DNA of 64,000 bases, taken from Candidatus Obscuribacteraceae bacterium. GTDB lineage: Bacteria; Cyanobacteriota; Vampirovibrionia; Obscuribacterales; Obscuribacteraceae. The notes under the pieces are model-generated. The model did no database searches and was not told the DNA's origin. It saw nothing but the letters and a program-made list of their open reading frames with translations. The first letter of the stretch is position 1. Every line of letters starts with the position of its first letter. The position numbers and the translations under genes were made by a program. Positions 8,205 through 39,476 of this stretch are shown here, piece after piece. Location of the stretch: assembly GCA_044229845.1 (NCBI GenBank), contig JBGASG010000011.1, positions 79,480-143,479 of the forward strand, written 5' to 3'.

Positions 8205-8259
8205 AAGAAACCTCAAGATATCCTGTGAGGAATTTTCGCGCAATAAGCCATTTGTGGCG

Positions 8260-8277
8260 ATCATCTGAAAGGTGGAT
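8260..8277. promoter_or_regulatory. 7-4-7 box ATCATCT-GAAA-GGTGGAT
   Basis: Located in the tnaA/TPR divergent spacer. Confidence 0.65.
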
Positions 8278-8357
8278 TCCTCCAGGTAACCATCCTCGGA
8301 CATACAGAATGAGGTTGATGTTGAGTCGCCGGCGGGTTGGAGATACTTGGAATAAGT

Positions 8358-11140: not shown

Positions 11141-12316
11141 TTAGCACGATTCAATTTCTTTGCTGAAGCTCTCCTGCAAGATTCGTTGCTGTGCCATGGC
11201 CTGCTCGTCGCACTCGTCGTAAAGGCAAAGCGGATCCTGGGCGAGGTAATCGTCATAGCCAGCGAAGGCACGGGCTCTAGATCCTCCACAGATTACTTTG
11301 AATTTGCATCTTCCACACTTGCCCTGCAAAAGCGATGGATCTCTCAGTGCGACAAACAACGGATGGTCCCGGTATATTTCCACTACGGACTGCTTGCGCA
11401 CGTTAGCGCTGCTCACAGGCAAGAATCCGCTGGGATGAACATCGCCGTTGTGCGAAATGAACAGCACGCCACGGCCATCATTAACCGACCGGTAAGCACG
11501 CAGCGCACCCAGTCTCATAGTCGGCGATAAAGTGGCGATGTCCTCTGGAACAGGAGACTCCCTGGAGACATATTCGATCAACACGCGGCGGAAAAATGGA
11601 CCCGCCGTCGCTTTAACATCAAAGGGAGCCACGCAGGCCAACTTGGCCATCTTGATCATAATCTCTTCCGCTTCGACGGGTTCGATTTGCATATCTTCCG
11701 TTGCCCGACCTGTGGGGACCAGGAAGAAAATGCTCCACAGGACGGCTCCCAATCTCTGCACCAAACCGCTCATCTCATCGAATCGATCAACGTTTCCTTT
11801 CCATACCGTAGTGTTGATCTGTATGGGCAAATCGGCCTCTCTGGCAAACCCGATTATCTGCATCGACAGCTCGAAAGAGCCGCTCACTCCTCGCATGCCG
11901 TCATGACAAAGCTGGTCAGGTCCATCCAGGCTGATCGCCATGCGTTCCACTCCCGCATCCTTGATACGTTGCACCACATCCCTGCTGGTCGAAGGCGTGG
12001 CACTGGGGGTGATCGCTACCGGAAAATCTCTGTCTCGAGCAGCTTTGATGATCTCGAACAAATCGTTTCGCTGCACCGGATCGCCACCGGTGAAAACAAT
12101 TAACGGGCGCCCGAATTCCTTCATCTCATCCAGAAGAGAAGTGCATTCGGCAAGCGATAGCTCTGCAGGATCGTGCGCACGAATGGCTTTGGCGCGGCAA
12201 TGCCGACAGGCCAGATTACAGGCGCGGGTAAGTTCCCAGAGCACCAGAAATGGTGCCTTTTCAAAATCGACTCTGTTTTTGGGTGGTCCGGCATTTGATG
12301 CTGCAAGTCTAAGCAT
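11141..12316 (-). CDS. Radical SAM/SPASM protein, TIGR04053 (AhbD/NirJ-related)-like
   Basis: WELTRACNLACRHCRA, PSGFLP and CGRCKFKVICGGSRARA motifs; start 12316 overlaps the narK stop. Confidence 0.8.
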   Translation of the reverse strand: MLRLAASNAGPPKNRVDFEKAPFLVLWELTRACNLACRHCRAKAIRAHDPAELSLAECTSLLDEMKEFGRPLIVFTGGDPVQRNDLFEIIKAARDRDFPVAITPSATPSTSRDVVQRIKDAGVERMAISLDGPDQLCHDGMRGVSGSFELSMQIIGFAREADLPIQINTTVWKGNVDRFDEMSGLVQRLGAVLWSIFFLVPTGRATEDMQIEPVEAEEIMIKMAKLACVAPFDVKATAGPFFRRVLIEYVSRESPVPEDIATLSPTMRLGALRAYRSVNDGRGVLFISHNGDVHPSGFLPVSSANVRKQSVVEIYRDHPLFVALRDPSLLQGKCGRCKFKVICGGSRARAFAGYDDYLAQDPLCLYDECDEQAMAQQRILQESFSKEIESC

Positions 12317-14021
12317 TGCGAAATTCCTTTGTACGCAAGTAGAAGAACCAATTAAGTAGCACGCAGACCAGATAGAATGCTGTGAAGCCGTACAATGCCA
12401 CTTCAGGCGAGCCCAGCTTGATCTGCTCGCCGAATTCCATCGGAATGATGAAGGCACCATATGCTGCTACGGCGGAAGACCAACCTAAGACCGGACCGGC
12501 TTGCTCTTTACTGAACACCACTGCAACTGTTCTGAATGTCGACCCGTTACCGATTCCCGAGGCAAAAAACAGCACCAGGAAAAGAAGGAAGAAAGGCAGA
12601 AAATATTGCTCCGGCGTTGCGGACTGATAGGCCAACTTCATGAAGTAAGCCACACCCAGACCTGCCGCTACCATGAGCACTGAAACAGCCTGTGTTACCT
12701 TGGCGCCGCCGAACTTGTCAGCCAACCATCCACCAATCGGTCTGATCAGAGCACCTATAAAAGGCCCAATCCACGCAAACATAAGGGCGCTAGGGGCATT
12801 CGGGTTAGCGATGTGCGTCCAAGCTCCGTCTGCCCCGGGCAGATGGGAAAAGCCAAAGATCAGTTTGATTGATAAGGGCAACGCTGCCGAGAATCCAATG
12901 AATGATCCGAAGGTCATGGTGTAAATGATGGTCATCACCCATGTGTGATGATTGCCAAAAATCTTGTACTGCCTGTTGAGGTTGTCTTTCAATCCAGGAA
13001 GCATTTTGAGCAAGAATACCGTGGCAAAAATCTCGGCCGGCAAAATTATCCACTTGCTGAGATTGAATCCGGCACCCGATGCAGTGGCTGGAAGCATCAA
13101 CCAGAGCGCCACTGCCGATGTAATGAACCCGATGCTCAACATGAGCGATATTCGAGCAAATGCTGCAGCCGGGCTTCCGAGGCCGGGCGACACCTGCTCG
13201 TCCTTGATATTGTTCATGCCAAACCAGGAAAATATCGCCAACGGTATCAATAAGGCGAGCCATATAAATGAGCCATTAGCTATGAAACTCTCCGCGCCAG
13301 GCGGAATTTTGCCAAACAAAGTACCACTAGCAGACTTGAGGATAAGCGGTGCCTGCCAGGCAAAACCAAAAGTCATCGCCAACGGTACCAACACTTGCAT
13401 GGTCGTTACACCAAAGTTTCCCAGTCCCGCATTCAGACCAAGAGAAAGCCCCTGCATCTTTTTCGGAAAGTAGAAACTGATGTTGGACATTGAGGAAGCA
13501 AAGTTACCGCCGCCAATTCCAGATAGCAATGCCATTGCCTGGAAGACCCATAGTGGAGTAGCGGTGCTCTGCAACGCAATACCTGTCCCAATAACGGGAA
13601 TCGTCAATAGCGCGGTCGTAAACCAGATTGTGTTCCTGCCTCCCGCCAGACGAATAAAAAACGTGCTGGGAATGCGCAGAGTCGCACCAGCCAGCCCGGC
13701 GATTGAAGTTAACGTGAAAAGCTGGTCTTGAGTAAAGGGAAAACCCAGATTGAGCATCTGGACAGTAAGCACCCCCCACGCCATCCATACCGCGAAAGCA
13801 CACAATAAACTCGGGATTGAAAACCAGAGATTGCGAAATGCTATTGCCTTGTCGTGGGCTTGCCACTGAGTGTCGTCCTCTGGGTTCCAATTAGTCAAAT
13901 TGCCCGAGTCGATGCGCGGCGCGCCGGCCTTCCCGGAGTTGTCCAGGCTGAATTCTCTTTGCTCACCACCTGCTTGATCTAGGCTTTCTTGACTCCGATG
14001 TGAGGCTACCATGAGCTTCAT
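12309..14021 (-). CDS. narK: Nitrate/nitrite transporter, NarK2-type
   Basis: W.PED, GATLRIP, GIGGGNFASSM and GIGNGSTF nitrate signatures. Confidence 0.92.
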   Translation of the reverse strand: MKLMVASHRSQESLDQAGGEQREFSLDNSGKAGAPRIDSGNLTNWNPEDDTQWQAHDKAIAFRNLWFSIPSLLCAFAVWMAWGVLTVQMLNLGFPFTQDQLFTLTSIAGLAGATLRIPSTFFIRLAGGRNTIWFTTALLTIPVIGTGIALQSTATPLWVFQAMALLSGIGGGNFASSMSNISFYFPKKMQGLSLGLNAGLGNFGVTTMQVLVPLAMTFGFAWQAPLILKSASGTLFGKIPPGAESFIANGSFIWLALLIPLAIFSWFGMNNIKDEQVSPGLGSPAAAFARISLMLSIGFITSAVALWLMLPATASGAGFNLSKWIILPAEIFATVFLLKMLPGLKDNLNRQYKIFGNHHTWVMTIIYTMTFGSFIGFSAALPLSIKLIFGFSHLPGADGAWTHIANPNAPSALMFAWIGPFIGALIRPIGGWLADKFGGAKVTQAVSVLMVAAGLGVAYFMKLAYQSATPEQYFLPFFLLFLVLFFASGIGNGSTFRTVAVVFSKEQAGPVLGWSSAVAAYGAFIIPMEFGEQIKLGSPEVALYGFTAFYLVCVLLNWFFYLRTKEFRNA

Positions 14022-14197: not shown

Positions 14198-15946
14198 CTA
14201 AGGAGAAAGTTGCCTGACAGACTCACCAAGTTCGAGCAGCTTCGCTTCTCGGTTCTTCAACTTTTGATGGGGTAAAGCTGACTGTGAGCCCAGGCTGTAC
14301 ACATCCAGCTCGCCCCGCAGGCGCGCCTGCAAAGTATCCAGAATCCACACGCCCGTGCCAGGAATATACGACGTTGATCCCTGCGCAACTCGCTTAGCAA
14401 ACAACTGGGCGGCCGTCTTCGGTCGCTTGACCGGCAAGCGGGATGATGACGCAGATGGGCCCGCAGCTGCTCGCGGCGCAGGCGGTGTCGGGGCAGGTTG
14501 CTTGAAACCATAGCCGGCATTGGTCAACTGGATGCCCCACGCCATCTTGGTGCCGCCAATCGATGCATTAAACAGGCAGCGTTCCAAAAACTCCTTATCC
14601 GCTTTTTTCTTTTCAGCGGCGTTCATCTGGGATTGTTGCTTGAATACCAGATCCGCAGTCTCATAAGCAGAAACACGGGCTGCCAATCGTTCGTCGTGGG
14701 CGGTAAGCATGCCCTTCAGCACGCTTATGTGCTCACTCAATTGAACCGGTCCGATTTTGCCGCATTCGCGATCGAGCCGTGTTTTCGCACGTTTGGCGGC
14801 ATAGTTACCGGCAATGCGGCCAATAATGGGACCCGTAACGATATTGGCACCAGATATGGTGAAGCCAATGCCGGCCGGTCCAGCCAGTCTTGGGTTACGA
14901 TCTGCAACCGCTAACAAACCGCAAAGCGAACCCATATAGCCACCTGTAGTGGCGGCGGACAACTGGTTGAGATATGAGACGTTGCGTGCTCCCAGGCGGC
15001 GCTTAGCCCGTACATGAAACTGGATATACTCAGCCAAAGCCATGTTGCGAAAATCTTTCAGAACGACTCCTTCCGCCGCCAGCATCTGTCGCTCCGACTC
15101 AGGCAAAGAGCTCGTACGCGCGAGTAATTGCTCACGTTCGGCCAGTGTGCGGTCGATGGCTACACACAACTCCATCGCTCGTTTTTGGGTGGCTTTGGCG
15201 TCGAGCCCTCGTTTTCGCAGCTTACAGTCGTTGACGGCATCGAGTAAGGCTTCGATGAGAACGCCTCCGGTCATGATTGAATGACTAGTCAAAAGCAAAA
15301 TTGGACCAGCCTTAAGTGCTCCTCGATTGGCTGTTGCAGGTCGTTGCCACGTGCGCCATCTTTCAGCTGCAATTGTGGTGATACCGGCTGTAGCGACTCC
15401 GGAGCCGGCCAGGTTGTACACGAACACACGCCATGGCTTAATTCGACTCTTATCAGTCGTGGACATGCGGAAGCGGGTATTTAGTATCAACAGCTCCACT
15501 TCATCTTGCAAAGCTTGATTGGCCAAACTATCAATGCGTGCTGTCACTACTGGCAGGTCGCTTTCATCAGCAGACTTACTCTCCGCCCAGTTGTTCACAG
15601 CAATCAGTTTTTTGGGGGCACCTTTCGCCATTGGCTCGGCCGTTGCCGTATCGTCTTGCGCCAACCCTGCTTCGTGTGCTGAATCGGTTGCGTATGCTGA
15701 ATCGGTTGTCGCCGTTGCCTCGTCCGTCACCGCTCCGTCCGCAACATCGATGCTGGTCATTGTTCCGAAAACTTTCGCAGCGCTCCCTGATTCCGAATCT
15801 GAAGAAGCCGCAGTAGCACTTGCACCTGAACAGTGCAACTTCTGCGAAGGTAGCGCCGAAAAATCTTGCGCTCTAGCATAGTTGGTGCTGCCAGTAACCA
15901 GACAGCAGACACTCAGAGCAACATGAAAGGCTGGGCGGATATTCAT
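14198..15946 (-). CDS. Hypothetical exported/membrane protein
   Basis: Long ORF with signal-like N-terminus (..ARA-QD), low-complexity linker and Gly-rich hydrophobic helices. Start uncertain. Confidence 0.7.
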   Translation of the reverse strand: MNIRPAFHVALSVCCLVTGSTNYARAQDFSALPSQKLHCSGASATAASSDSESGSAAKVFGTMTSIDVADGAVTDEATATTDSAYATDSAHEAGLAQDDTATAEPMAKGAPKKLIAVNNWAESKSADESDLPVVTARIDSLANQALQDEVELLILNTRFRMSTTDKSRIKPWRVFVYNLAGSGVATAGITTIAAERWRTWQRPATANRGALKAGPILLLTSHSIMTGGVLIEALLDAVNDCKLRKRGLDAKATQKRAMELCVAIDRTLAEREQLLARTSSLPESERQMLAAEGVVLKDFRNMALAEYIQFHVRAKRRLGARNVSYLNQLSAATTGGYMGSLCGLLAVADRNPRLAGPAGIGFTISGANIVTGPIIGRIAGNYAAKRAKTRLDRECGKIGPVQLSEHISVLKGMLTAHDERLAARVSAYETADLVFKQQSQMNAAEKKKADKEFLERCLFNASIGGTKMAWGIQLTNAGYGFKQPAPTPPAPRAAAGPSASSSRLPVKRPKTAAQLFAKRVAQGSTSYIPGTGVWILDTLQARLRGELDVYSLGSQSALPHQKLKNREAKLLELGESVRQLSP

Positions 15947-16044
15947 GACAGGGTCTCGGTGGAGATGCAGCAATGGTTAGAGTGGCACAAACAAAGGCCT
16001 TATGGCACACCCTGTAGAACGAACTGACATCGTCCCGAGGATGC

Positions 16045-16095
16045 AAATAAACAGATCGAAAGTGCCGAAGTAATACCTCCGGCACTTTCGATCTG
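16045..16095 (-). terminator. Intrinsic terminator with 16-bp perfect stem
   Basis: CAGATCGAAAGTGCCG (16052-67) / CGGCACTTTCGATCTG (16080-95), followed by UUUAUUU on the minus strand. Confidence 0.8.
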
Positions 16096-16227: not shown

Positions 16228-16848
16228 TCACTGCTCGGACGTGCCGCTGTGACTCTGGTCACCTTTGATCTTGCTCTTGCGATAACTCAAGCCCATGCCT
16301 TTCAAGAGATGCACGAAGCCGTAGTCAAGCAATACAATGGCAAGAAATGCCAGACCAACGTGCGGCGCATATTTTTGCAAGTTCTGAAGAAACAATGACC
16401 AGGGGTCGCCGTGATGCGGATTCAAAGCGTCAGTCCCCTGCGCAAACTCCTTGCCATCAGCAATACCGTCCTCGTCCAAATCACTTTGACCAAGTGCGTC
16501 CGCCAGCTTCGCCGGGTCGCTGCGCATTTCGAGAAACTTCTTCCGTCCAACTACTTTGAGTATCTCGTTGCCGAACTTATTGAGAATCGGGCTGTCAACC
16601 TCCGTGCCCGGCTCCATAGCCTTGCGGGCGGCAAGAAGCTTCTTCATCTGCTCAGGTGTTAGGCCGCCCACTTGTCCGGACTCTGTTCCCACCGGTCCAT
16701 TACCGTGGGTGTGGCACATTGCGCAATTAACATTGCGTCCGGACTGCTTCTCAGCATAGCTCTGGAATTCCGGATATGCCACCGCCCCCGGTGCCAGGCA
16801 GAACAGGCACGTGATCGTCAACAGTGTCAGAGACACATTCGTAGCCAC
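16228..16848 (-). CDS. Membrane-anchored monoheme cytochrome c
   Basis: Signal peptide AVA-YP, CAMCH, DLDEDGIADGKE Ca-binding-like motif, C-terminal TM helix. Confidence 0.8.
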   Translation of the reverse strand: MATNVSLTLLTITCLFCLAPGAVAYPEFQSYAEKQSGRNVNCAMCHTHGNGPVGTESGQVGGLTPEQMKKLLAARKAMEPGTEVDSPILNKFGNEILKVVGRKKFLEMRSDPAKLADALGQSDLDEDGIADGKEFAQGTDALNPHHGDPWSLFLQNLQKYAPHVGLAFLAIVLLDYGFVHLLKGMGLSYRKSKIKGDQSHSGTSEQ

Positions 16849-16852
16849 TTGA

Positions 16853-17953
16853 TTATCCCCCTTTCACAAGGTGATAGATCTGCTCGCCCCAAATGGTCAT
16901 TACAACCAAATAGACTGTCGCGGCCCAAGTCAATAATTGCAGCGTTCGCCGGCTGGTGCCCTTGAATATCCAGGGAGCCAGAAGCAGAACTGCCACCACC
17001 AGACCCGAGCCGACCAGAATTACCCAGAACGGCAGCATCTCCAGTGGGTAATAGACAAAATAGAAATACCATTCCGGCTTGATGCCGGGCGGGGTTGAGC
17101 CAAGCGCGTTGTACGGTTCCAGAAGCGGGAAGGGCAAAAGGGAATCGAATGGAATGCAGAGACCCAACACAAAGAGGACGAAGAAGATCATGCTCCACAG
17201 CGTAAGATCTTTGAAAAAGAAAATGGGGAAGAACCGCTCAGATTTCTGCAAAGGTCTATCCACTCCCTGACTCATCCCGTGCAGCTGCACTTGCATCAAA
17301 TGAATACCCAGCAAAGCAAACGTCGCCAGAGGCAATAGAACCACGTGCAATGCGTAAAACCTGCCCAGGGTGGATTGGCCGACGGCAGACTCGCCCTGAA
17401 ATGTTTCCCTCAGTATGCGAGGCAACTCGGCCAGTGCCCCAGGCAAATAGGGACCTACTTCTTCGACTGATTGAAGTCCGACCTTAGTGGCATTGACCGC
17501 AATCTGATTCCAGGGCAGTAGATATCCCGTGAAGGCAAAGCCGAATGTCAGAAATAGAAGCAACACACCCATGATCCATGTGATCTCGCGTGGCTTCTCG
17601 AAGGCTTTCATGGCAAATGCAGTGAGCAGGTGCACCACAGCAAAGAAGACCATGCATGATGCAGACCAGGCATGCATGTTGCGAATTAGTGCACCGGCAC
17701 TTACGTGATTTGTAATGAACTCTACAGACAAGTGCGCATCGCTTACCGTGGGCTGGTAATAGAAAAGAAGAAACAGTCCGGTGACGCATTGAATCAGGAA
17801 GAAGAACAGGGTCAGCCCCCCCGTGTAGTAGCCCCAACTCATTTTGTGAACCGGCACTTCCTTCTTCTCGACCATCGAGTGGAAATTCATTTTCTCCACA
17901 GGGAATCTGTCGCCGATGAATTGCACTAATTGCGTCATCACGGTGGCTTTCAC
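16853..17953 (-). CDS. Cytochrome b of a Rieske/cytb complex (b6 + subunit IV-like in one chain)
   Basis: H-x13-H and H-x14-H heme ligands; GYLLPW and PEWY motifs. GTGA overlap with narI and GGAGG SD. Confidence 0.92.
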   Translation of the reverse strand: MKATVMTQLVQFIGDRFPVEKMNFHSMVEKKEVPVHKMSWGYYTGGLTLFFFLIQCVTGLFLLFYYQPTVSDAHLSVEFITNHVSAGALIRNMHAWSASCMVFFAVVHLLTAFAMKAFEKPREITWIMGVLLLFLTFGFAFTGYLLPWNQIAVNATKVGLQSVEEVGPYLPGALAELPRILRETFQGESAVGQSTLGRFYALHVVLLPLATFALLGIHLMQVQLHGMSQGVDRPLQKSERFFPIFFFKDLTLWSMIFFVLFVLGLCIPFDSLLPFPLLEPYNALGSTPPGIKPEWYFYFVYYPLEMLPFWVILVGSGLVVAVLLLAPWIFKGTSRRTLQLLTWAATVYLVVMTIWGEQIYHLVKGG

Positions 17954-19269
17954 GAGACTGCCTCCGCATGCGCTTTTGCAATGTACACGTTGGCCTCGGA
18001 CAGAGCGCTTGCATCCCGTTGTCCGGTTATTTTGCCGGCGCGATTGCGTTCCATCAGCACCGTCCCTTTTGTATCCATGAGTACCCACCCCAACAAGGGC
18101 AGAGGTAGTTTTGCCGGCGCTCCTTCGTTTGGTTTGCCAGTTTCAATGTCGAAAAACGAAACGTGGCACGGGCAGAGAATCTGTCCCTTGGCATTAACAT
18201 CATTGCCTACGGTGCATCCCAAATGCGTGCACTTCGCGGAAAGCAAGATGGGCAAACCGTCTTTGTCCTTGAATGCCATTGCCGGTCGCATACTGTAATC
18301 GGTGAAATACTTTCCTTTTGTGCCGTTCAATTCCGACAACTTAGCAATCAGTATGTAATTGGATTGCTGCCGCTCCAGTTCTAGCTTGCGTTGCTCGGCG
18401 GTTGCCTGGAGCCTCTTCAATCGCAACTCCATCATCTCGGCTTCTTCCTCTTTGGAGAGGCGAGGGCCAAAGAAGAACCTCCAGGTCTTATCCAGGGCTC
18501 CCACTGCCAGCAACGCGCCACCGGCAGCGATACCGATGCCGGCGCGCAAAAAGTGTCGTCTGGACTCCTCCTCGACATAGTGCTCGCGAGCAGCCTCGGC
18601 TCGACGTTCATTCGTCCAGACCACCTTTTGCGGCGGACGGAACAGATACTCTATTGGCACAGCGAACATGTGTATGAGCCGGGAAAATGGAATCGTCAAA
18701 ATTATCAGCCAGGCTCCGACTATGTGAGCCCGAACCAGTATTGGCATGTCTTGTATTACGCTGATGTTGGGGTTGAAGGTGAACAGGCTCCAGATATATG
18801 GTGTCATGCTGCCGGGCGCCCAGGCGGCACCCCATCTGTAATGCAGCGCCATACCCAGCCCGGTAGCCACTTGCGCAAGCAAGAGAAACAGCACCACAAA
18901 GTCCATTGTGGTAGAAACGGCTTGCAGGCGCGAACTCATTATTCGTCGAACGATAAGCACCAGTAGCCCAACGATGCACCCGACTGCCAGCGCGATGCCG
19001 GATATCTCGACTGCGTGCAGGATGGGTTGCACGGACATAGCCGCCTTCCAGGGACCGGGTGCAACAAGCACCACGATATGGACGAGCAAAATCAGGATGA
19101 TGCCGATATGCCAGGGCACCGACCCCCACACCAGTGCTTTGCTCTCCAGAAACTGCGAGGACAAGGCGGTGTAAGTCAGACCTTGCTTGCGAATGCGGTA
19201 GATCGATCCAAATATGCAGGCCGTCAGCGCTATATAGGGCAGAACGACAAACAACAGGATGTCCAACAT
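17950..19269 (-). CDS. narI: NarI (gamma subunit) fused to a Tat-motif TM helix and Rieske 2Fe-2S domain
   Basis: SSQFLE, H-x9-H and H-x17-H (PFSRLIH), then SRRHFL + TM helix, CTHLGC and CPCH. Confidence 0.9.
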   Translation of the reverse strand: MLDILLFVVLPYIALTACIFGSIYRIRKQGLTYTALSSQFLESKALVWGSVPWHIGIILILLVHIVVLVAPGPWKAAMSVQPILHAVEISGIALAVGCIVGLLVLIVRRIMSSRLQAVSTTMDFVVLFLLLAQVATGLGMALHYRWGAAWAPGSMTPYIWSLFTFNPNISVIQDMPILVRAHIVGAWLIILTIPFSRLIHMFAVPIEYLFRPPQKVVWTNERRAEAAREHYVEEESRRHFLRAGIGIAAGGALLAVGALDKTWRFFFGPRLSKEEEAEMMELRLKRLQATAEQRKLELERQQSNYILIAKLSELNGTKGKYFTDYSMRPAMAFKDKDGLPILLSAKCTHLGCTVGNDVNAKGQILCPCHVSFFDIETGKPNEGAPAKLPLPLLGWVLMDTKGTVLMERNRAGKITGQRDASALSEANVYIAKAHAEAVS

Positions 19270-19279
19270 AACAAACTCC

Positions 19280-19813
19280 TCAGCTACCGGCACTCATAAC
19301 TTCCAAAAGACTGGCAAAGAGCTTGCCATACGGGTTGTTGGTTGCATTTTTCAGATTGTCTGCCATTTCGGCCACTGGTTTTTGCAGACAGAACTCAACC
19401 AGCTCGTCGACTTCTTCAGTCGTGGCATATGTCATGTATCGCAACATCACAGCCAGATGGTCCGGCATTTCATTGCCGCGGTCGAAGCCGGTTTCATCGT
19501 ATCTTTGGATCAGCCCGGCCATTAAGTTGCCGCGCTCGTAGTTTTCATCACCATAAATGTGTGCGCTTATGTATGGGCTGCAAATTGGTGCCATATCGAA
19601 GGTGCGGGTGAATACCTCTTCGAGCTCGCTGAGAGGCATTGCATCGATGCGCTCGCAGAACTCAGCCAGATAGCGCCCCGCTCTGGAATAGTCCGCACTT
19701 ATGGAAACTTGCCTCTGGCGGGCCAGTTGCGAGTAACCTTCATTCGGATACTCGAGCAAGGCTGCGTATTCAGAAAGGGCCGGCGCTTTAGGTTTTTTCA
19801 ACGGAATGATCAT
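19280..19813 (-). CDS. narJ: Nitrate reductase molybdenum cofactor assembly chaperone
   Basis: LLEYP, FTRTFD and EMPDHL motifs; lies between narH and narI. Confidence 0.88.
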   Translation of the reverse strand: MIIPLKKPKAPALSEYAALLEYPNEGYSQLARQRQVSISADYSRAGRYLAEFCERIDAMPLSELEEVFTRTFDMAPICSPYISAHIYGDENYERGNLMAGLIQRYDETGFDRGNEMPDHLAVMLRYMTYATTEEVDELVEFCLQKPVAEMADNLKNATNNPYGKLFASLLEVMSAGS

Positions 19814-19814
19814 A

Positions 19815-21338
19815 TTATGGACCTCTCTCCGGTGGCTGGTTGAATCCAAGCCCGCATGAGCCTTTACATAACTCGGGACTGCACGAAGGTTGCCCGGCCA
19901 TCGCTTGACCGGTCATCGCTTCTTCTCGCTGAATTGGCGCCAGTACAAAGCGATCGTAAATCGTTGGTAGAGCAGTAAGCGAATAAATCTCCTCAGCTTC
20001 TGAAGGAGTGACATTACCTTCGCGCATGAACTTGCTCATGGATACGAGATCAAGATCTCCTATCTCCTGCGTCCGTTTGTAATAACGCACCGCCATCAGT
20101 TTCTTCATTACGTATTCGATGTGCTCTACATTGCCGGCGCTAAAGAGTTTCGCCAGGTATTTGATCGGCAATCGCGACTTTTCCAGGCTGCTGAAAAACT
20201 GATCGACCGGATTCTCGTAATGCCCGTTGTCGAATTTACCCATCACAGGCAAAAGTGGTGGCACATAGAAAAGCATCGGCATGGTCCGATACTCTACGTG
20301 TAAAGGCAGTGCAAGTTTCCATTCCTTGACGTACTTATATATAGGCGACTTTTGAGCGGCATCGATAAATTCGTCGCTGATCCCGTTTTTGCGAGCCTCC
20401 TGCATGATCTTGGGATCGAAGGGGTCGCAGATGACACTGCGCTGCGCCTCGACGAGGGCATGATCCGGTACGCTCATGGCTTCAGCCACACGCTCCGCGT
20501 CATACAGCAGAACCCCCAGATAACGGATGCGGCCCACACATGACTGGAAGCAGTTGGGAATCTGTCCTGTCTCCAGCTTTGGATAGCAAAGAATGCACTT
20601 CTCCGATTTGCCCGTTTTCCAGTTGTAATAAATTTTCTTATACGGGCAAGCGGAGATGCACGCTCTCCAGCCCTTGCACATGTCCTGATTGATCAGGACA
20701 ATTCCGTCTTCGCCGCGCTTATAAAGAGCCCCAGACGGGCAGGATGCGACACAGCTGGGATTTGCGCAATGATTGCAAATGCGGGGCAAATACATAAATG
20801 AGATACGCTCTACCTCGAAGAGTTGCTCGCGCTCTTCGTCACTGAGACCTTCGAGATTGATATCGTTTTCGGCGTAGACAGGGGAGCCAGAAAGATCATC
20901 ATCCCAGTTCGGACCAGCTTCGATGTCCATTGGCTCACCGGTGATTTGCGACACGGCAATTGCTGTGGGCTGATCATCACCTTCTGGTGCATCGAACAAG
21001 TCCTGGTATTTGTACGTCCAGGGCTCATAATAATCCTCGAGCCCCGGTTGGTTCGGGTTGTAGAACAGTTTGAGAAACGCATCCAGCTTGCCTTGTGAGC
21101 GCAGCTCAAGGCTTCGCTTGCCGTTCTTGCCGTTGACTTTCCAGCCGCCTTTGTAGTGCTCCTGATCTTCCCACAAAGTGGGATAGCCGGTGCCGGGTTT
21201 GGTTTCGACATTGTTCCACCACATATACTCAGCGCCCGGTCTATCCGTCCAGACGTTTTTGCAAGCCACGCTGCACGTATGGCAGCCGATACATTTGTCG
21301 AGGTGAAACACCATTGAGACTTGTGCGCGAATATCCAT
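19815..21338 (-). CDS. narH: Nitrate reductase / nitrite oxidoreductase beta subunit
   Basis: LDKCIGCHTCSVACK, PRICNHC.NPSCVASCP, CKGWRACISACPY and KCILCYP motifs. Confidence 0.95.
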   Translation of the reverse strand: MDIRAQVSMVFHLDKCIGCHTCSVACKNVWTDRPGAEYMWWNNVETKPGTGYPTLWEDQEHYKGGWKVNGKNGKRSLELRSQGKLDAFLKLFYNPNQPGLEDYYEPWTYKYQDLFDAPEGDDQPTAIAVSQITGEPMDIEAGPNWDDDLSGSPVYAENDINLEGLSDEEREQLFEVERISFMYLPRICNHCANPSCVASCPSGALYKRGEDGIVLINQDMCKGWRACISACPYKKIYYNWKTGKSEKCILCYPKLETGQIPNCFQSCVGRIRYLGVLLYDAERVAEAMSVPDHALVEAQRSVICDPFDPKIMQEARKNGISDEFIDAAQKSPIYKYVKEWKLALPLHVEYRTMPMLFYVPPLLPVMGKFDNGHYENPVDQFFSSLEKSRLPIKYLAKLFSAGNVEHIEYVMKKLMAVRYYKRTQEIGDLDLVSMSKFMREGNVTPSEAEEIYSLTALPTIYDRFVLAPIQREEAMTGQAMAGQPSCSPELCKGSCGLGFNQPPERGP

Positions 21339-21346
21339 ATCGACTC

Positions 21347-24300
21347 CTAGAAGTTCGGCTTGTCGAGTTTTTTCACAACGACGAAAGTGTCACGATTTAC
21401 GCCAGTAGGTCCCCAGTAGTTGAACCCATAGCTGAATTGCGCATAGCCGCCGATCATGAATAGCGGCTTCAGTCGTGCCCGCGTAAGACTGTTGTGTCCG
21501 CCGGCTCGCCTGTTTTTTCGTTCCGGAGATTTCGGTACTGTCAACGTGCGCTCGGGCGAGTGATAAATGAAAGCGGTGCCGCGCGGGATACGAGCACTGA
21601 CGATAGCGCGGGTGCAGACCACGCCATGATCGTTGAAAATTTCTACCCAGTCGTTATCTTCGACACCAACGAGATCGGCATCCTTGTCGTTCAACCAGAC
21701 CGGATAAATTCCTCTGCTCAGAGTTTTCATCCGTAAGGTGTCGCCGAAGGTTGAGTGAATATGCCACTTGCCGTGTGGTGTCAGGTAATTGAGCACCAAC
21801 GAGCCACCTTTCACCTCAGTTTTCTGCAGGTCACGCGTGACACTCAAGTCGGCACGTGGTTTGTATGTCGGCAGATGCTCGCCGTAAGCGATGTAGACTT
21901 CATGATCCAGATACAGATGCTGCCGGCCGGTAAGCGTGCGCCAGGGAATCAATTCTTCGACGTTCTGGCAATAAGCGGAGTAGGTTCTGTTTTCAGTCGT
22001 TATGCCAGTCCAGTAGGGTGATGTCAGCACACGACGCGGCTGCGCCCTCAAATCAGCGAATGTATAGCGGGTAGCGCGCGTGTCTCTGGCCAGATGGCTA
22101 TGATCGATACCTGTCTTATGACTTTCAGATTCATATGCGCGAAAAGCAAGTTCGCCGTTTGTCTCCGCTGCGAAGTTCAAAATCACCTCGCAAACATTGA
22201 GACCTTCCTTTAGTGACGGATAGCTTTTGCCTGACCATGTTTGCGACGGTTGAGTCTCGATGTATTTGTCATACTCATCTTCGATATCATAGTGAGTTCC
22301 GTGTACCGCCAATCCATTGTTGCGGGCGACCGGCCCGAATGAGATGAACTTGTTATAGAGATTGACGTAATCGCGCTCCACTACTTTCATATTGGGCATG
22401 GTCTTGCCCGGAATTGCTTCGCATTCACCCTTGAGCCAGTCTTTCACAGTCGGTTGCGCGATCTCGCCGGGAGTGTCATGAAGCAAAGGCGACACCACCA
22501 GGTCTTTGACCGGTTCGTTCAAATAGCGTTTTGCCAACTCAGAGGTAGATTTCGCAATTCCTTTGAATATATCCCAATCAGTCTTGCTTTCCCAACATGG
22601 TGGCACCGCCGGTTGCAGAGGATGAATAAAGGAATGCATGTCCGTGGTGTTCAGGTCATGCTTTTCATAGTGGGTAGCTGCAGGCAAGACCAGGTCTGAA
22701 TAGAGAGCAGATGAATCCATGCGGAAGTTAAGGTCTACCACCAGATCCATCTTGCCCAACTCGATCTTGTCGTGCCAGGTAATCTCTTTGACCTCATCAC
22801 CGGCCACTTCCTCGGCTATGGTGTTATTGTGCGTTCCCAAGTAATGTTTGAGAAAATACTCGTGTCCCTTTGCTGATGAGAGCAGCGCATTTCCCCGCCA
22901 TATGTACCAGACGCGGGGCCACGACTCCGGCACGTCAGGATCTTCCATGGAGAATTTCAATGAGCGATCTTTTAAAGACTTAACTGCATACTCAATGATT
23001 TGCGAGTCGGTTTTTGCTCCACTGGCTACTGCTTCTTCGACCACTTTGAGATTGCTTCGGTTGAATTGTGGAAAGCACGGCAGCCAGCCATTTCGTACAG
23101 CCAACACTTGTTTGTCAGCTGTATGTCCTGAACTCATTGGATGCTTGTCGTCCGCTACCGCGCACATCTCATTAAATGAATTGTCATAGCGCCACTGATC
23201 CGAATGTATGTAATGGAAAGACGGCGTATTTTGCAGACGCGGCGGCCCGTACCAATCTGTGCCGAAAGCAATGGGTGCCCACGAGGCCTGTGGCACCAGC
23301 TTTTCTTGTCCAACGTAGTGGTTTAAGCCGCCACCACTTACCCCGACACTGCCGGTGAGGATGAGCGCATTGATTGCCGCTCTGTAAATGAGGTTGTTGT
23401 GATACCAGTGGTTGGCACCGGCACCAATAATTATCGAGCACTTGCCTTTACTCGCTTCTGCGGTGCGCCCCCACTCGCGAGCGAAGTTGATCACATTTAC
23501 TGCTTTGATGCCAGTAAACTTCTCCTGCCACGCGGGGGTATAAGGAAGCTCTTCGTCTTCGTAAGTCTCCGGATATGCGCCTCCCATGCCGCGGTCAACA
23601 CCATATTGAGCAAGCAGAAGCTCCATGACGGTCGTCACAAGCACTTCCCCGGTGGCGGTTGTGACGCGGCGAACTGCCACACCACGATTGAAAAGTTTGT
23701 CGGCAGTGCCTTCCGAGAAGTCGTTTAACTTCACACTCACCACGCCATCATGACGCCCGACGAGGGTGAGGAGTGGATCTACCTTGGCGTTGGTCAAAGC
23801 ATTCTCCAACTTCAGATTCCATTCGCCTTTTTTGGATTGCCAGCGATGCCCAATCGTTCCTCTGAGCATTGCCGGCTGATCGGTGAGCGCGTCCCAAACG
23901 AACATTTTCCACTCGGCGTTCTCTTCCTTCGCTGTGCTTTCGACATCACTGGCCCTCAGCAAACGCCCGGCGCTGTATGTGCCATCGGCATTTTTGTCGA
24001 GACAGACAAGAAACGGAGCATCGCTGTATTGCTTGGCATAATTGACGAAGTAAGGCACCTGCCGATCGAGGTAAAACTCTTTAAGCAGAACATGCGTAAC
24101 TGCCATCCAGAAAGCGCCGTCCTGTCCCTGATTGATTGGAACCCACTCGTCAGCAATTTTCGAAGCCATCGAGAAGTCTGGCGAGAAGACCACAACCTTG
24201 GCGCCACGGTGCCGTCCTTCAACTAAGAAGTGCGCGTCGGGTGTTCTTGTCATGAGCACGTTGGAGCCTACAACGGCAACAAATTTGGAGTGAAACCAAT

Positions 24301-24979
24301 CCGCACTTTCGCCGACATCAGTTTGCTCACCCCAGATCTCAGGCGACGCCGGCGGCAAGTCGCAGTACCAGTCATAAAAAGACATACTGACGCCACCTAG
24401 CAGTTGCAGGAAGCGTGAGCCTGCTGCGTAGCTCACCATCGACATGGCTGGAATCGGAGAAAAGCCGATAATGCGATCTGAACCGTGTCTCTTGATTGTC
24501 GAGATGTTGGCTGCTGCCATCATCTCATTAGCTTCGTCCCAGGCGACACGGCGGAAGCCGCCTTTGCCTCGCGCGCTCTGGTATCGTTTGCGCTTGTCAG
24601 GGTTCTGGACTATCGACTCCCATGCCGCAACCGGATCATTGGGAAACTGAGCTTTGGCTTCGCGCCAGAGATCGATCAAGGCGCCCCGAGCGTAAGGGTA
24701 CTTCACTCTCAGCGGGCTGTAGAGGTACCAGCTGCAGGAGATACCGCGCTGGCAGCCTCTGGGCTCGTGGGGAGGAATGTCTTTACTGATACTGGGATAA
24801 TCCAGCGCTTGCAGTTCCCATGTAACAATGCCACTTTTCACATAGACGTTCCAACTGCACGAGCCGGTGCAATTGACACCATGAGTGGAGCGTACGATGT
24901 TGTCGTATTGCCAGCGATTTCTATAGAAGTCTTCCCATTGCCGCTGTTTCGGTGCAAAAATGTCTTTGATCCAAGCCAT
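21347..24979 (-). CDS. narG: Nitrate reductase / nitrite oxidoreductase alpha subunit (no Tat signal)
   Basis: [20 protein letters not shown] and [10 protein letters not shown] motifs; 1210 aa. Confidence 0.95.
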
Positions 24980-24985
24980 GGTGCC

Positions 24986-25855
24986 TTATCTCCTGGTTAA
25001 CTTGTCGCGGGCCGGTTTCTTCCGTGTGCGGTAGCCCACTGCCACGGCCGCAATCAGAATTGCAGCCCCGATAAACCCCATCATTTCTACAGCTCCAGAA
25101 ACTGGTTTATTGGACCCAACTCCTTTAAGAGTCGACATGTATGCTGCCAGGTCAACGGCTTCGTCGTGAGTAACCGGGCTGTCTTTGTAAGCATTTTTCA
25201 TGACCCGGTAGGGTGTCTTTTCCGCTGCCACCACCAGCGCTACCATATTGAATTTCGTGGCGACGGCACCGAGGTCTGGACCCAACCCTCCCTTTGTCTC
25301 TCCCGTCACGCTGTGACACGAGACGCATGCCATGCCCTGGTTTTTCAATGAGCGCTTTCCGGAGAACAATTCTTCGCCTGCAACCACAGATCCCGGCTGT
25401 TCGGTTTTTACCGGCGGCTCAGTTTCGACGTGCTTGGTAGTACCGGCGGCAGTGCTTGAGGCATCCGAACTGGTGGCTGTGCCGGTTGCGGTAGTGTCAG
25501 ACGATGGTTTGGTCTCAGCAGACGTCGTGCTCGTCGTTGGGTTCAGTGCGGCTGCGTCCGATCCGCCGCCTTTGAGATATTTGACCAGTGTGGTAATCTC
25601 GGCCGCTGTCATAGGACCGGCCTGACTTTGCATCCGGGTCACATTACCTTCGATCTGAGATTCCGCCTGCAGTTTCGCGCCGCCCAGATCTGGACCGACG
25701 AGTGGACCTTTCCCTATCGTGTGGCAGCTGGCGCACTTTTCGGTAAACAACTGCGAACCATCCTGGGCAGCGGCGTTGATCGGTACCGCCAGCGATATCG
25801 CTACAAGCACCCGAGATGCGATCTTTGCTGTCGTCCTCAAGCGCATTCTTGTCAT
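24986..25855 (-). CDS. Membrane-anchored diheme cytochrome c (NarC-like)
   Basis: Signal peptide, CASCH and CVSCH separated by a Thr/Ser linker, C-terminal TM helix; immediately upstream of narG. Confidence 0.82.
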   Translation of the reverse strand: MTRMRLRTTAKIASRVLVAISLAVPINAAAQDGSQLFTEKCASCHTIGKGPLVGPDLGGAKLQAESQIEGNVTRMQSQAGPMTAAEITTLVKYLKGGGSDAAALNPTTSTTSAETKPSSDTTATGTATSSDASSTAAGTTKHVETEPPVKTEQPGSVVAGEELFSGKRSLKNQGMACVSCHSVTGETKGGLGPDLGAVATKFNMVALVVAAEKTPYRVMKNAYKDSPVTHDEAVDLAAYMSTLKGVGSNKPVSGAVEMMGFIGAAILIAAVAVGYRTRKKPARDKLTRR

Positions 25856-25905: not shown

Positions 25906-27387
25906 TTAGTCGCTGCATTGATTATGAAGTGAACGAATGGTCCCGATCCTTCGGCGGATGCGCAGTTTGTTCAAAACTGCATCGGCAGCTCGCCTGGCAG
26001 ATGCAAGACAATCAGGAATCCCGATGCCGCTGTATGCGTTACCAGCCAGGTACAAATCATCACAGCCGCCTAACTCTGCCTGCAAATCTTGCATGCGTTC
26101 CAGGTGCCCGACTTCGTACTGCGGCAGCGCATTGTCGTGCCTGGTCACCCAGACCTGGAGCGGCGGTCTTTCGACACCAACATAGTCTTCAAGGTCTTTC
26201 AGCAAGGCAGCAACGACGTCCTGGTTACTGGCGCCATCCAAAAGGCTCTGTCCTTCTCTGCTGAGAGACACGCGCAACAAGACTTTATCCTCCTCCGTCC
26301 TGCCACCGAATTTGATGCTTGTGAATGTACACGCACTCGTAAAGCGCCCCTCTTTTGGAGGAACAACGAACCCAAAGCCGTCCAGAGCATGTCGGATGTC
26401 TTTTCGGTAAAAAAGAAGATTGACGATAACAGTCGGTGCGTACGCGATCTGCCTGAGTTTGTGCCCGAGGGAAGCATTTATAGGGCAGAGGAGTTGTCCG
26501 GCTATGTTGGCTGGAGTTGCCACCACCACACTGTGAGCTCCTATTCGCTTACCGCTGCACAGGCAGATTTCATACCCGTACTCTGGCAGCGTGCTGTGTA
26601 CGATGTGATCTACGGGTGTATTGAGACAAACTGAACCGGCAGGCAGGTGGCGTAAGAGCCCATCGATCAATACTTGCATTCCACGGTCGAAACTTGCAAA
26701 TAGCCCATAGCGTGATCCTGCAACAGCTGAATTCCGACCATCCTTCTTTTGTAGTTTCTGCTTCCACAATCCGCGAATAATGCTTCCGCACTCAGCTTCG
26801 TACTGCACCATTTGCGGTACCGTACATTTGGAACTCAAAAGACGAGCGTCCCCACCATAAATTCCTGCGATCATCGGCTCGGCTAGCTGCGTGAAAGCCT
26901 CCTGCCCGAGACGTCGCTGCACAAAATCGGCTAAACTCTCGTCCACTGCATCGCCTTTGCGAGGAATAACGAGATCCATAGCCATGCGAATTTTACAGGG
27001 CACACTGACCACACCGGTAGTGAGCCAGGGCCGGAACTTCGTAGGAGCAAACAAGACGAATCCATCCGGCATGGGATGCAGTTTGCTCCGGCGAGCTATA
27101 AAGGTGCGTCGATGCTTTTCGTTGGTGGATATTACACTGTGCGTCAGTCCCAACTCCCGCACCAGATCGACAACCTGGGGCTTCGCCGTTAGAAATGCTT
27201 CGGGTCCTTTATCTATCACGGCACCGGCAGCGACCTCGGTCGCTATCACGCCTCCAGCGCGACCACTGCCTTCCAGGACGATAACCTCCACCTGTGCGCA
27301 ATCGCTGCCGCGATGAATGAAATATGCTGCCGCAAGGCCAGATATCCCCGCTCCGATCACGACAATTCGAGTGCGACTCTCAACCAT
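25906..27387 (-). CDS. hemG: Proto-/coproporphyrinogen oxidase (HemY-type FAD enzyme)
   Basis: GAGISGL, DESLADFVQRRLG, PQYEVGH and GIGIPDC motifs. Confidence 0.9.
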   Translation of the reverse strand: MVESRTRIVVIGAGISGLAAAYFIHRGSDCAQVEVIVLEGSGRAGGVIATEVAAGAVIDKGPEAFLTAKPQVVDLVRELGLTHSVISTNEKHRRTFIARRSKLHPMPDGFVLFAPTKFRPWLTTGVVSVPCKIRMAMDLVIPRKGDAVDESLADFVQRRLGQEAFTQLAEPMIAGIYGGDARLLSSKCTVPQMVQYEAECGSIIRGLWKQKLQKKDGRNSAVAGSRYGLFASFDRGMQVLIDGLLRHLPAGSVCLNTPVDHIVHSTLPEYGYEICLCSGKRIGAHSVVVATPANIAGQLLCPINASLGHKLRQIAYAPTVIVNLLFYRKDIRHALDGFGFVVPPKEGRFTSACTFTSIKFGGRTEEDKVLLRVSLSREGQSLLDGASNQDVVAALLKDLEDYVGVERPPLQVWVTRHDNALPQYEVGHLERMQDLQAELGGCDDLYLAGNAYSGIGIPDCLASARRAADAVLNKLRIRRRIGTIRSLHNQCSD

Positions 27388-27596: not shown

Positions 27597-29138
27597 ATGA
27601 ATAAATCCAGCGACTCACAGCCGCCATCCGTCCTGGCAAACAACAACACCAGAGCTGTGCAAGTCCTGGCGGCCAATACGGCTTCCTTTGCTGTTTGCTT
27701 CGCCTGCTGGATGCTGTATGGCGTTTTGATCACTTTTCTAGTCGACAACAACGTCTTCAAATGGAACCCATCGCAGATGGGATGGTTGATCGGCATTCCC
27801 GTGTTAACGGGCTCCATCATGCGCTTGCCGGTCGGAGTACTCACCGACAGATATGGCGGTAGAGCGGTCTATGCCGTCTTGATGCTAATTTCGGCCGCGT
27901 CCATGTTCATGGTCGGGTTCTGCAATTCCTTTGTTGAATTTCTTGTTGCCGGACTTTGCTTCGGACTGAGCGGAGCGGCCTTCGCCGTAGGAGTTGCGTA
28001 CACGTCGATCTGGTTCCCTAAAGAAAGACAGGGCTTTGCTTTGGGCATATTTGGAGCAGGCAACGCCGGCGCCGCTATCACCAGCTTCGGTGCACCACAG
28101 CTTTTGTCTTGGCTAACGCACAACATGCAGAACATAGAAGGGTGGCGACACTTACCTCGATTGTACGCCGCTGCATTAGTCGTAATGACAGTCATATTCT
28201 GGTTGCTGACTTCGACGAAGAAAGTGCAAGGTAAAGAAGGCATGACCATCATGCAACAGCTTGCACCATTGAAAAACGTACGGGTTTGGAGATTCGGACT
28301 CTACTACTTCCTTGTCTTCGGCGGATTCGTTGCTCTCTCACAATGGTTGATTCCGTATTACTTGAACGTCTACGGCATGAGTTTGGCTCTGGCCGGTTTC
28401 ATGGCTGCGCTTTTTAGTTTGCCCTCGGGAGTGATTCGCGCTCTCGGCGGCTGGATGTCCGACAAGTGGGGAGCGCGCAACGTAATGTATGTGGTACTGG
28501 TATCGTGTTTGGTTGCCTGCGCACTTTTGTGTGTACCGCGCATGGACATTCAGTCACCAGGTCCAGGAGTGATGGCCATGCAAAAAGGTATAGTGACTGC
28601 AATCACCGCCGATTGCGTCCAAGTTGACGACAAACGATATGCAATCAAACCCAGGCATCCAGAAAATGTTGTCACCATCGCCGATAAGAACGACAGTATG
28701 CTGATTTGGCCAACCCTGGTGTCATGGCAAGAACCGATGGTGAAGGTCGGTGATACAGTTCAGCGCAAGCAGGTTTTGGCTCGTGGAGTGACGCACATCT
28801 TTTTCCAGGCAAATGTCTGGATATTCACCGTCCTTGTATTTATCATCGGTGTCATGACCGGCATTGGCAAAGCCGCGGTTTACAGGCACATTCCCGACTA
28901 CTTCCCGCACGATGTCGGGGTCGTGGGCGGTATCGTCGGAGTCATCGGTGGGCTGGGAGGCTTCGTCGGACCGATACTCTTTGGTTATTTCTTGGACGTC
29001 AGTGGAATCTGGACCACCTGTTGGGTGTTTTTCGCCATCCTCAGCGCGGTCTGCCTGACCTGGATGCATTGGACTATTTCACACATGATGAATGAGCACG
29101 CACCGGAACTGGCTCGCCAGATGGCAACGCGAATCTGA
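27597..29138 (+). CDS. narK: Nitrate/nitrite transporter, NarK1-type, with an inserted soluble domain
   Basis: GIPVLTGSIMRLP, GIFGAGNAG and GIGKAAVY motifs. Confidence 0.9.
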   Translation: MNKSSDSQPPSVLANNNTRAVQVLAANTASFAVCFACWMLYGVLITFLVDNNVFKWNPSQMGWLIGIPVLTGSIMRLPVGVLTDRYGGRAVYAVLMLISAASMFMVGFCNSFVEFLVAGLCFGLSGAAFAVGVAYTSIWFPKERQGFALGIFGAGNAGAAITSFGAPQLLSWLTHNMQNIEGWRHLPRLYAAALVVMTVIFWLLTSTKKVQGKEGMTIMQQLAPLKNVRVWRFGLYYFLVFGGFVALSQWLIPYYLNVYGMSLALAGFMAALFSLPSGVIRALGGWMSDKWGARNVMYVVLVSCLVACALLCVPRMDIQSPGPGVMAMQKGIVTAITADCVQVDDKRYAIKPRHPENVVTIADKNDSMLIWPTLVSWQEPMVKVGDTVQRKQVLARGVTHIFFQANVWIFTVLVFIIGVMTGIGKAAVYRHIPDYFPHDVGVVGGIVGVIGGLGGFVGPILFGYFLDVSGIWTTCWVFFAILSAVCLTWMHWTISHMMNEHAPELARQMATRI

Positions 29139-29785: not shown

Positions 29786-29839
29786 TCTCGTCTGCTAGCA
29801 TGCGTGTCACCCTGGAGTGTGCAACCGATGGAGGTTTCG

Positions 29840-37551: not shown

Positions 37552-37554
37552 GAT

Positions 37555-38136: not shown

Positions 38137-38145
38137 GGCAGCTCC

Positions 38146-39318: not shown

Positions 39319-39476
39319 CGTCGATCCGTTGTCTCCAAACGCCTGCATCTCCAGCACAGGCATATGCAGACTAGCTTTCGGCGTCCTGGCTTTTCATCGG
39401 CCTTGCGGCTTTGCGCAAAGATGTGTCACACACGCAAATAGCCAAAAGAGCGCGTCTTTTTCGCGCTAGCGCAAAG

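Follow-up and report, generated by a model that had tools for sequence, protein, structure and literature searches.

A conserved NarI–Rieske fusion operon in Obscuribacterales and a probable Q-cycle route into cytoplasmic nitrate reductase

Textbook cytoplasmic nitrate reductase (Nar) bypasses complex III and moves two charges per nitrate. Among described systems, the nar cluster of Thermus thermophilus, NarCGHJI(KT) (PMC7694296; locus L031 in our set), shares with the locus reported here the gene order narC-narG-narH-narJ-narI, a diheme membrane NarC and a NarG that is 62% identical and belongs to the same clade. It differs in that its NarI is unfused and keeps Arg86 and Gly65, its operon holds no bc genes, complex III is repressed under nitrate, and NarC has been proposed as an output branch (PMC7694296). 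For the Melainabacteria, a gene for a cytoplasmic 'NXR' (nitrite oxidoreductase) followed by petB and narK was described in one genome by PMC6349859, which credits a similar arrangement of bc genes with NarG to Soo et al. 2017; the co-location itself is already in print (2017, 2019). Here we describe a seven-gene operon with a narI::Rieske fusion, apparently the same kind of locus, in a 64,000-nucleotide stretch (the window) of contig JBGASG010000011.1 from a Candidatus Obscuribacteraceae bacterium, a member of the order Obscuribacterales (Melainabacteria) whose genome is 88% complete. The accessible portions of PMC6349859 give co-location only, without the NarI–Rieske fusion, NarC, the loss of the quinol site, the last cytochrome or an electron path.

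Seven open reading frames (ORFs) on the minus strand, running from position 25855 to 16228 of the window, make up the 9.6-kb operon. The genes, the parts of the fusion protein and the likely terminator are as follows.

24986–25855, minus strand: narC, diheme cytochrome c with an N-terminal signal and a C-terminal membrane anchor; CASCH (41) and CVSCH (177), with a conserved Met after each.
21347–24979, minus strand: narG, catalytic subunit with a molybdenum bis-pyranopterin guanine dinucleotide (Mo-bis-PGD) cofactor; HGVNCTGSC and PRGC (cluster FS0), YDWYCDLP (Asp ligand); TIGR01580, 1548 bits.
19815–21338, minus strand: narH, with four iron–sulfur (FeS) cysteine groups; TIGR01660, 625 bits.
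19280–19813, minus strand: narJ chaperone; TIGR00684.
17950–19269, minus strand: narI::Rieske fusion of 439 aa, with five NarI helices, a cytoplasmic linker, RRHFL and a sixth helix, a 30-residue helical stalk and a Rieske head.
18616–19269, minus strand: NarI domain of the fusion (residues 1–218), heme ligands H54, H64, H182 and H200; E. coli G65 corresponds to V63 and K86 to I83.
18547–18561, minus strand: internal twin-arginine motif RRHFL (residues 237–241).
18070–18360, minus strand: Rieske head (about residues 304–400), CTHLGC and CPCHVSFF, with Ser and Phe at the two potential-setting positions.
16853–17953, minus strand: unsplit seven-helix cytochrome b, H94/H108 and H203/H218 (b6-type spacing), PEWY, without the heme ci Cys.
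16228–16848, minus strand: monoheme membrane cytochrome c without a Pfam family; signal end AVA, mature start YPEF, CAMCH, a DxDxDG Ca-type motif and a C-terminal anchor.
16052–16095, minus strand: likely intrinsic terminator at the 3' end of the operon, a 19-pair hairpin with a T-rich tail.

The intergenic gaps from narC to the last cytochrome gene are 6, 8, 1, 10, −4 and 4 bp when cytochrome b starts at GTG 17953. The gene order and the spacing of at most 10 bp given by an earlier sequence-only reading thus stand, apart from a single gap of 11 bp, between narI::Rieske and cytochrome b, if the latter starts at ATG 17938. The profiles for NarG (TIGR01580), NarH (TIGR01660), NarJ (TIGR00684) and NarI (TIGR00351) all exceed their cut-offs. 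The fusion, the PEWY cytochrome b and the diheme NarC of that reading are likewise borne out: the 439-aa ORF holds PF02665 (4–218) and PF00355 (307–386) in a single frame, the cytochrome b matches PF00033 with PEWY at residue 293, and CxxCH occurs twice in NarC and once in the last ORF. The alignment of NarG to its E. coli counterpart begins at residue 12, and the protein has neither an RR within its first 60 residues nor a hydrophobic segment, in agreement with the earlier call that it carries no twin-arginine translocation (Tat) signal; by these features NarG is cytoplasmic. A periplasmic NXR or pNar was ruled out, since NarG lacks such a signal and matches Kuenenia NxrA weakly.

A protein search with the fusion returned 564 homologues among 7998 scored candidates, and the best 120 of the 564 all hold both Pfam domains. 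Gene order was scored at 58 loci with a fused ORF wherever the DNA extends far enough, some loci being the same genome twice. Cytochrome b lies 3' of the fusion in 55/55 and the last cytochrome c in 49/49, and narJ lies 5' in 56/56 and narC with narG in 21/21. An assembly artefact or a chance fusion is ruled out by the 120 two-domain homologues and the conserved gene order. The conserved fusion operon is real and built of known parts. No description of a NarI–Rieske fusion was found in the literature searched, which included accessible portions of PMC5600118 and PMC8235220 and covered few subscription papers. A promoter scan gave 6 sites, with 10 expected by chance. In RNA libraries of four sludge studies, contigs nearly identical to parts of the operon give depth in 24, 19, 19 and 23 of 30 bins, and a control stretch has depth in 12, 14, 11 and 23 of 30; since the runs were selected because they contain the operon, and co-transcription cannot be read from contigs, this coverage is not counted as evidence.

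Across the order, 48 of 107 genomes match and 39 of the 107 carry the fusion with both domains in one frame; the remaining matches are eight genomes with the Rieske part only and one with a NarI fragment at a contig end. A phylum-wide sample yielded matches in 8/401 genomes, three of them fused, including the source genome. The closest loci come from Obscuribacterales, other Melainabacteria and single Hydrogenedentota, Sumerlaeota, Chitinophagaceae and 'Proteobacteria' bins. NarG is about 50% identical to proteobacterial NarG, against 62% to that of Thermus, and NarC shares 37% identity with Thermus NarC across residues 155–240. In a NarG tree of 31 rows, the 19 fused-operon NarGs form one clade (Shimodaira–Hasegawa-like approximate likelihood-ratio test, SH-aLRT, 100), which nests in a NarC-type group with enzymes of Thermus, Chloroflexi and Bacteriovoracaceae (SH-aLRT 100). 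The sequence-only reading had likened the N-termini of NarG and NarH to the Geobacter Nar and Nitrobacter Nxr clade more than to E. coli; the tree, drawn without named sequences from either genus, places NarG in the Thermus-type NarC clade. Nine loci of kin (L061–L069), with no nar genes in the stretch, hold the Rieske–cytochrome b–cytochrome c triplet by itself and with an N-terminal RRxF of its own, and we regard it as a genuine complex III module because it stands alone there. From its sequences, the operon combines a NarCGHI of the Thermus type with a three-gene complex III, and in the simplest history a free complex III of this kind would have become attached after narI in a narCGHJI operon. 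Operons of this family that stand alone, with no gene for a terminal reductase close by, were recorded at L061–L069, L072, L075 and L076, and L071 has the Rieske and cytochrome c genes with no cytochrome b between them.

The reading we favour, at a probability of roughly 0.6, is that the operon encodes Q-cycle-fed cytoplasmic nitrate reduction, with four instead of two charges moved per two electrons and likely within one supercomplex. The general secretory (Sec) pathway would insert the five NarI helices and Tat would export the folded Rieske head. Menaquinol would be oxidised at the PEWY Qo site, with one electron cycling via hemes bL and bH. The other would pass from the Rieske cluster (predicted at +200 to +230 mV) to the monoheme cytochrome c, the diheme NarC and NarI heme bD, and then through heme bP and the FeS chain of NarH and NarG to molybdenum. 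NarI would thus serve as a transmembrane wire and not as a quinol oxidase, at a yield of four versus two charges per two electrons; nitrate would be reduced to nitrite in the cytoplasm, and NarK carriers would move both ions. The sequence-only reading had sketched this same route from a Q-cycle through periplasmic cytochromes to the NarI hemes and NarGH. Intact Qo, heme and FeS motifs, the Tat motif, the lost base of the NarI quinol site, menaquinone and a weak NarC–NarI model agree with it, while the electron path is what we infer from them.

The predicted structure of the fusion has the NarI helices, a long sixth helix, the 30-residue helical stalk and the Rieske head, at a predicted local distance difference test (pLDDT) score of 85; its predicted template modelling score of 0.49 leaves the domain arrangement uncertain. 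Foldseek matches the model to E. coli NarI and to b6f and bc1 Rieske proteins. NarI has an N-out, C-in topology, with which the Arg/Lys-rich loops 1, 3 and 5 of the fused NarI agree. An R/K-R-x-F motif lies 36–39 residues past the last heme His in 154/156 fused sequences, with RRxL in the other two, and TatC is encoded in the source genome. Given the position of this motif, TatC and the NarI topology, the Rieske head is predicted to lie outside the membrane, inserted in dual Sec/Tat fashion. Known dual Sec/Tat membrane proteins (PMC5449189) are alike in that a twin-arginine motif inside the protein directly precedes the last helix and the cofactor domain lies outside; they differ from the fusion, in which five N-out helices precede the motif, and the term 'NarI' is absent from the main text of PMC5449189. 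The operon thereby supplies a putative new dual Sec/Tat substrate. The Rieske boxes are conserved (CTHLGC in 155/156, CPCHxSxF in 156/156), and both potential-setting positions hold Ser and Phe in 156/156, residues linked to potentials of 200–230 mV (PMC3509893).

In the cytochrome b, PEWY and both His pairs were present in 47/47 sequences, with b6-type spacing and seven hydrophobic segments. The protein is unsplit, at about 361–366 aa, and has YYTGG or a similar motif and no heme ci Cys; it is not the split b6 plus subunit IV that marks cytochrome b6f. A K/R-D motif after helix D is matched by a strict pattern in 30/47, and 16 are unmatched by that pattern.

Gly65 and Lys86 of E. coli NarI are taken here to shape its quinol site; PDB entries titled for NarI-K86A and for an inhibitor complex are among the Foldseek matches. 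A NarI-type quinol site near the periplasmic heme is also described in the DsrM preprint (bioRxiv 2026.08.25.746951). All four heme His are invariant in 156/156 fused proteins. At the Lys86 position none of the 156 has Lys or Arg (Val 72, Ile 32, Leu 23, Ala 16, Phe 9, other 4); the same position is Arg in 102/120 short NarI relatives and in 8/8 unfused NarI from loci of the same clade, Thermus included. The Gly65 position is Ala in 90, Gly in 57 and another residue in 9 of the 156, with Val in the source protein, and is Gly in 107/120 short relatives. Judged by these residues, the base of the NarI quinol site is lost in the fused clade. Two fusion-bearing genomes (L073/G493 and L074/G458) also have a second, canonical proteobacterial-type narGHJI or a narH-narI part of one, with Lys86.

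NarC has two CxxCH motifs, each with a conserved Met downstream. Complex prediction with the NarI domain and the last cytochrome c, with NarC as partner, scored 0.36 against 0.00 for the best control, and fell to 0.00 once NarI was replaced; the NarC runs had contact agreement of at least 76% and partner pLDDT of at least 66. The mark used is reached by 116/157 solved and 2/215 mismatched pairs, with 18/157 and both mismatches at or below 0.60. The structure prediction suggested as a check by the sequence-only reading therefore lends weak support to NarC sitting on NarI and none to a contact between NarC and the last cytochrome. The predicted contact agrees with the one detected by two-hybrid assay in Thermus (PMC7694296).

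The quinone pool and the energetics fit the proposed route. The source genome encodes two MqnA/D-family proteins and an MqnP-like prenyltransferase, with a MenD match below cut-off only; MqnA/D-family (futalosine menaquinone) genes occur in 105/107 genomes of the order, and proteobacterial UbiA exceeds its cut-off in 0/107. Taking menaquinone at −75 mV, nitrate at +430 mV (PMC7931247), the Rieske cluster at +215 mV and a proton motive force (pmf) of 150–200 mV, two charges per electron leave 105–205 mV at a pmf of 200–150 mV. Both halves of the chain are downhill, with margins of 90–140 mV and 15–65 mV.

Several observations weigh against a Q-cycle feeding a NarI wire. In the cytochrome b, Gln takes the place of the bc1 Qi His, a substitution read here through the known roles of Qi-site residues. 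With this change and the missing heme ci Cys, the bc module could feed Nar without a productive Q-cycle, as a roundabout quinol:nitrate oxidoreductase moving two charges per two electrons. We regard this as improbable, as both cytochrome b hemes, PEWY and the K/R-D motif (in 30/47 by the strict pattern) are retained, and a low-potential chain would be purposeless without bifurcation.

The residue changes in NarI are also open to challenge. A quick tree of 79 rows, which sampled 22 fused rows and one in five of the short proteins with Arg, places the loss of Arg86 on one branch (SH-aLRT 100); the change therefore counts once and not 156 times. All 22 fused rows share that branch with 15 short Arg-less NarI rows. 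One of these, L094, is unfused and has no Rieske or cytochrome b gene in the next 1.5 kb downstream; it is the only one of the 15 with readable downstream DNA, and an Arg-less NarI can therefore exist without an adjacent bc module. By motif count, five further short NarI outside the fused clade lack the Arg, the Bacillus and Streptomyces reference NarI have Tyr at position 86, and Gly65 is retained in the 57 fused proteins noted above. The L094 gene, the Tyr of the two references and the retained Gly65 would suit a rather unlikely but serious alternative, in which the two halves are tethered parallel enzymes: NarI would oxidise menaquinol itself (two charges per two electrons), the bc module would supply the cytochrome c and NarC, which would form an output branch towards other periplasm-side acceptors such as cbb3 oxidases, and the fusion would do no more than secure co-assembly and co-expression. 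Thermus NarC has been proposed to carry electrons out of Nar (PMC7694296), and two cbb3-type oxidase loci in the genome are possible acceptors from cytochromes c. Against parallel enzymes, nearly every fused NarI has an aliphatic or aromatic residue at position 86, the fusion is conserved across several phyla, and separate bc–cbb3 and bc–bd-like clusters are already present in the genome. A nitrite-reducing sink is not evident either, as NirS and NrfA were not found in the 88%-complete source genome and NirK gave a match below cut-off only.

Two further points count against the relay of the favoured Q-cycle scheme. The complex prediction with the NarI domain, the last cytochrome c and NarC gave no support for the step from cytochrome c to NarC. 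The margin between Rieske and nitrate is thin (15–65 mV), and E. coli heme bD, at about +20 mV, would lie some 200 mV uphill of an SF-type Rieske cluster.

The sequence-only reading had also raised reverse operation, in which NarGH oxidises nitrite and electrons leave through NarI and NarC to an oxidase, or reach quinone through the bc module by reverse electron flow. In favour of this direction, Nitrobacter is described as having a cluster like that of Thermus (PMC7694296), a tree led to the label of cytoplasmic NXR for the Melainabacteria enzyme (PMC6349859), and a NarI without a quinol site is compatible with the outward direction also. This idea did not hold up and is now very improbable: RuBisCO was found in 0/107 genomes of the order, with positive controls matched, and reverse flow from nitrite to menaquinone falls 105–205 mV short at a pmf of 150–200 mV. 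The neighbourhood is an anoxia and nitric oxide gene set, and the supplement of PMC6349859 predicts nitrate and nitrite reduction. Operon neighbours include two NarK transporters, qNor, Rrf2 regulators, RIC, hybrid cluster protein, anaerobic ribonucleotide reductase and genes of heme and cytochrome c maturation. Nitrate respiration to nitrite under anoxia fits best.

The last cytochrome c has no conserved Met or His beyond its CxxCH and hence no conserved sixth ligand of that kind. In 30/30 locus sequences with an intact motif (one more is broken), the AxA-like end of the signal is followed by a Tyr or Phe placed exactly 17 residues ahead of CxxCH, and a [YF]Px[FYL] start occurs in 30/36 distant representatives. 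The heme of cytochrome f is ligated by the N-terminal amino group, and the cyanobacterial cytochrome f used for comparison starts AAA-YPFW with CxxCH at 21. By this analogy, the heme of the last cytochrome would likely be ligated by the protein's own N-terminal amine. The two are alike in an AxA signal followed by Y-P-x-aromatic, a single nearby CxxCH, a C-terminal anchor and an operon setting with Rieske and cytochrome b. They differ in the position of CxxCH (18 in the last cytochrome versus 21) and in fold: the model (pLDDT 95) consists of helices with no strand of three or more residues, whereas the extrinsic domain of cytochrome f is a beta-sheet (PMC7908018). The sequence match (E 0.098) is not significant, and the protein resembles cytochrome f without being a member of that family. 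Homology to cytochrome f or c1 was rejected: there was no Pfam match, the best PDB sequence match (E 0.012) reflects an EF-hand likeness, Foldseek gave no match at E 0.001, and VIA-align aligned the long C-terminal helix only. The globular part being barely covered by VIA-align, a new fold is suggested by the model and not proven. An Atlas search returned a single cluster without a name. The operon offers an uncharacterised cytochrome c family. A stronger version of the Q-cycle reading would have complex III hard-wired to Nar, NarI as a wire only, four charges per two electrons, and a relay that includes a new-fold, N-terminally ligated cytochrome c, which would be a counterpart to cytochrome f of separate origin in the group that is sister to the oxygenic cyanobacteria; it is put forward tentatively, with the odds somewhat against it.

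If the Q-cycle reading is true, these as yet uncultured bacteria, common in sludge and groundwater, would as much as double the energy they gain from each nitrate that they reduce to nitrite. Where surveys label genes of this clade 'NXR', the genes should then be read as nitrate reductases.

Four further genes related to nitrogen oxides or heme flank the operon.

12309–14021, minus strand: narK-type nitrate/nitrite transporter, ORF start possibly too early.
25906–27387, minus strand: hemG/hemY protoporphyrinogen oxidase, directly upstream of narC.
27597–29138, plus strand: second narK-type transporter.
29804–32086, plus strand: qNor-type nitric oxide reductase; PF22085 and PF00115.

A hemG/hemY gene is also found near the operon in L005, L009, L011 and L012. 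Two other neighbours recur in kin, both on the minus strand: a 591-aa ORF without a known family (14198–15973; Melainabacteria clusters without a name in Atlas), near the operon in several kin, and a TIGR04053 radical SAM/SPASM protein, AhbD/NirJ-like (11141–12460), which also recurs in its vicinity. Upstream of the window, an anoxia set (L087; G000:C20:59500-79479) comprises a CcsB-type cytochrome c maturation gene, hemA, RIC, a hybrid-cluster-associated protein and nrdD/nrdG. A second Rieske/cytochrome b cluster with PEWY (35108–39363, minus strand) lies between two polytopic genes resembling bd-like oxidase subunits, one with a C-terminal CxxCH. The bd-like label was given by inspection, NCBIfam showing no match at 1e-8, and the cluster is probably the bc and bd-like operon reported for Melainabacteria in the supplement of PMC6349859. 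Elsewhere in the genome, L081 (G000:C22:353000-362000) and L082 hold cbb3-type oxidase genes, followed by Rieske and two cytochrome b-like genes, one with a ferredoxin domain, and a second fused CcoNOP-like gene adjoins a SorA-like sulfite dehydrogenase.

The window also contains several mobile elements, assigned by inspection. A hybrid cluster protein gene (39411–46065) is split in two by an IS66-like element that contains a group II intron reverse transcriptase-like ORF, and a second such ORF lies at 32188–33882 (minus strand). An IS256-like transposase occupies 54906–56129 (minus strand), where an RNA-library contig joins 54864 to 56194, which is the empty site. Two tandem tryptophanase/tyrosine phenol-lyase-like ORFs, also by inspection, lie at 5317–8786 (minus strand). 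The G+C content of the window is about 0.52, lower than in most contigs (about 0.555).

Compared with E. coli-type NarGHI, the present enzyme is alike in its cytoplasmic NarG without a Tat signal and its four NarI heme His, and differs in V63 and I83 versus Gly65 and Lys86. The DsrMKJOP complex (bioRxiv 2026.08.25.746951) offers a parallel in that the NarI homologue DsrM, with a disabled quinol site, acts as a wire fed by periplasmic cytochrome c from a separate quinol oxidase; there, however, DsrP/O oxidises the quinol, an Arg and a loop block the site, and DsrC-trisulfide is the acceptor. In haloarchaea, Rieske and cytochrome b genes are clustered with narGH, and Q-cycle-fed nitrate reduction has been proposed (PMC3509893). 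That system differs in having NarG outside and Tat-exported, no NarI and no return of electrons across the membrane, a low-potential GF Rieske and no c-type cytochromes. The spore Nar1 of Streptomyces coelicolor with its bcc–aa3 supercomplex (PMC7931247) is alike in that NarGHI is proposed to be fed at heme bD by the diheme cytochrome c of a Q-cycle complex, with four versus two protons. In those spores the partners are shared and bind loosely, which is why Q-cycle coupling there has been proposed but not demonstrated. The Streptomyces case rests on separate operons, a shared aerobic supercomplex and co-purification only, whereas here a dedicated bc module is co-encoded and covalently joined. 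The whole proposed chain lies within 9.6 kb with a covalent tether, which makes the question of Q-cycle coupling experimentally testable.

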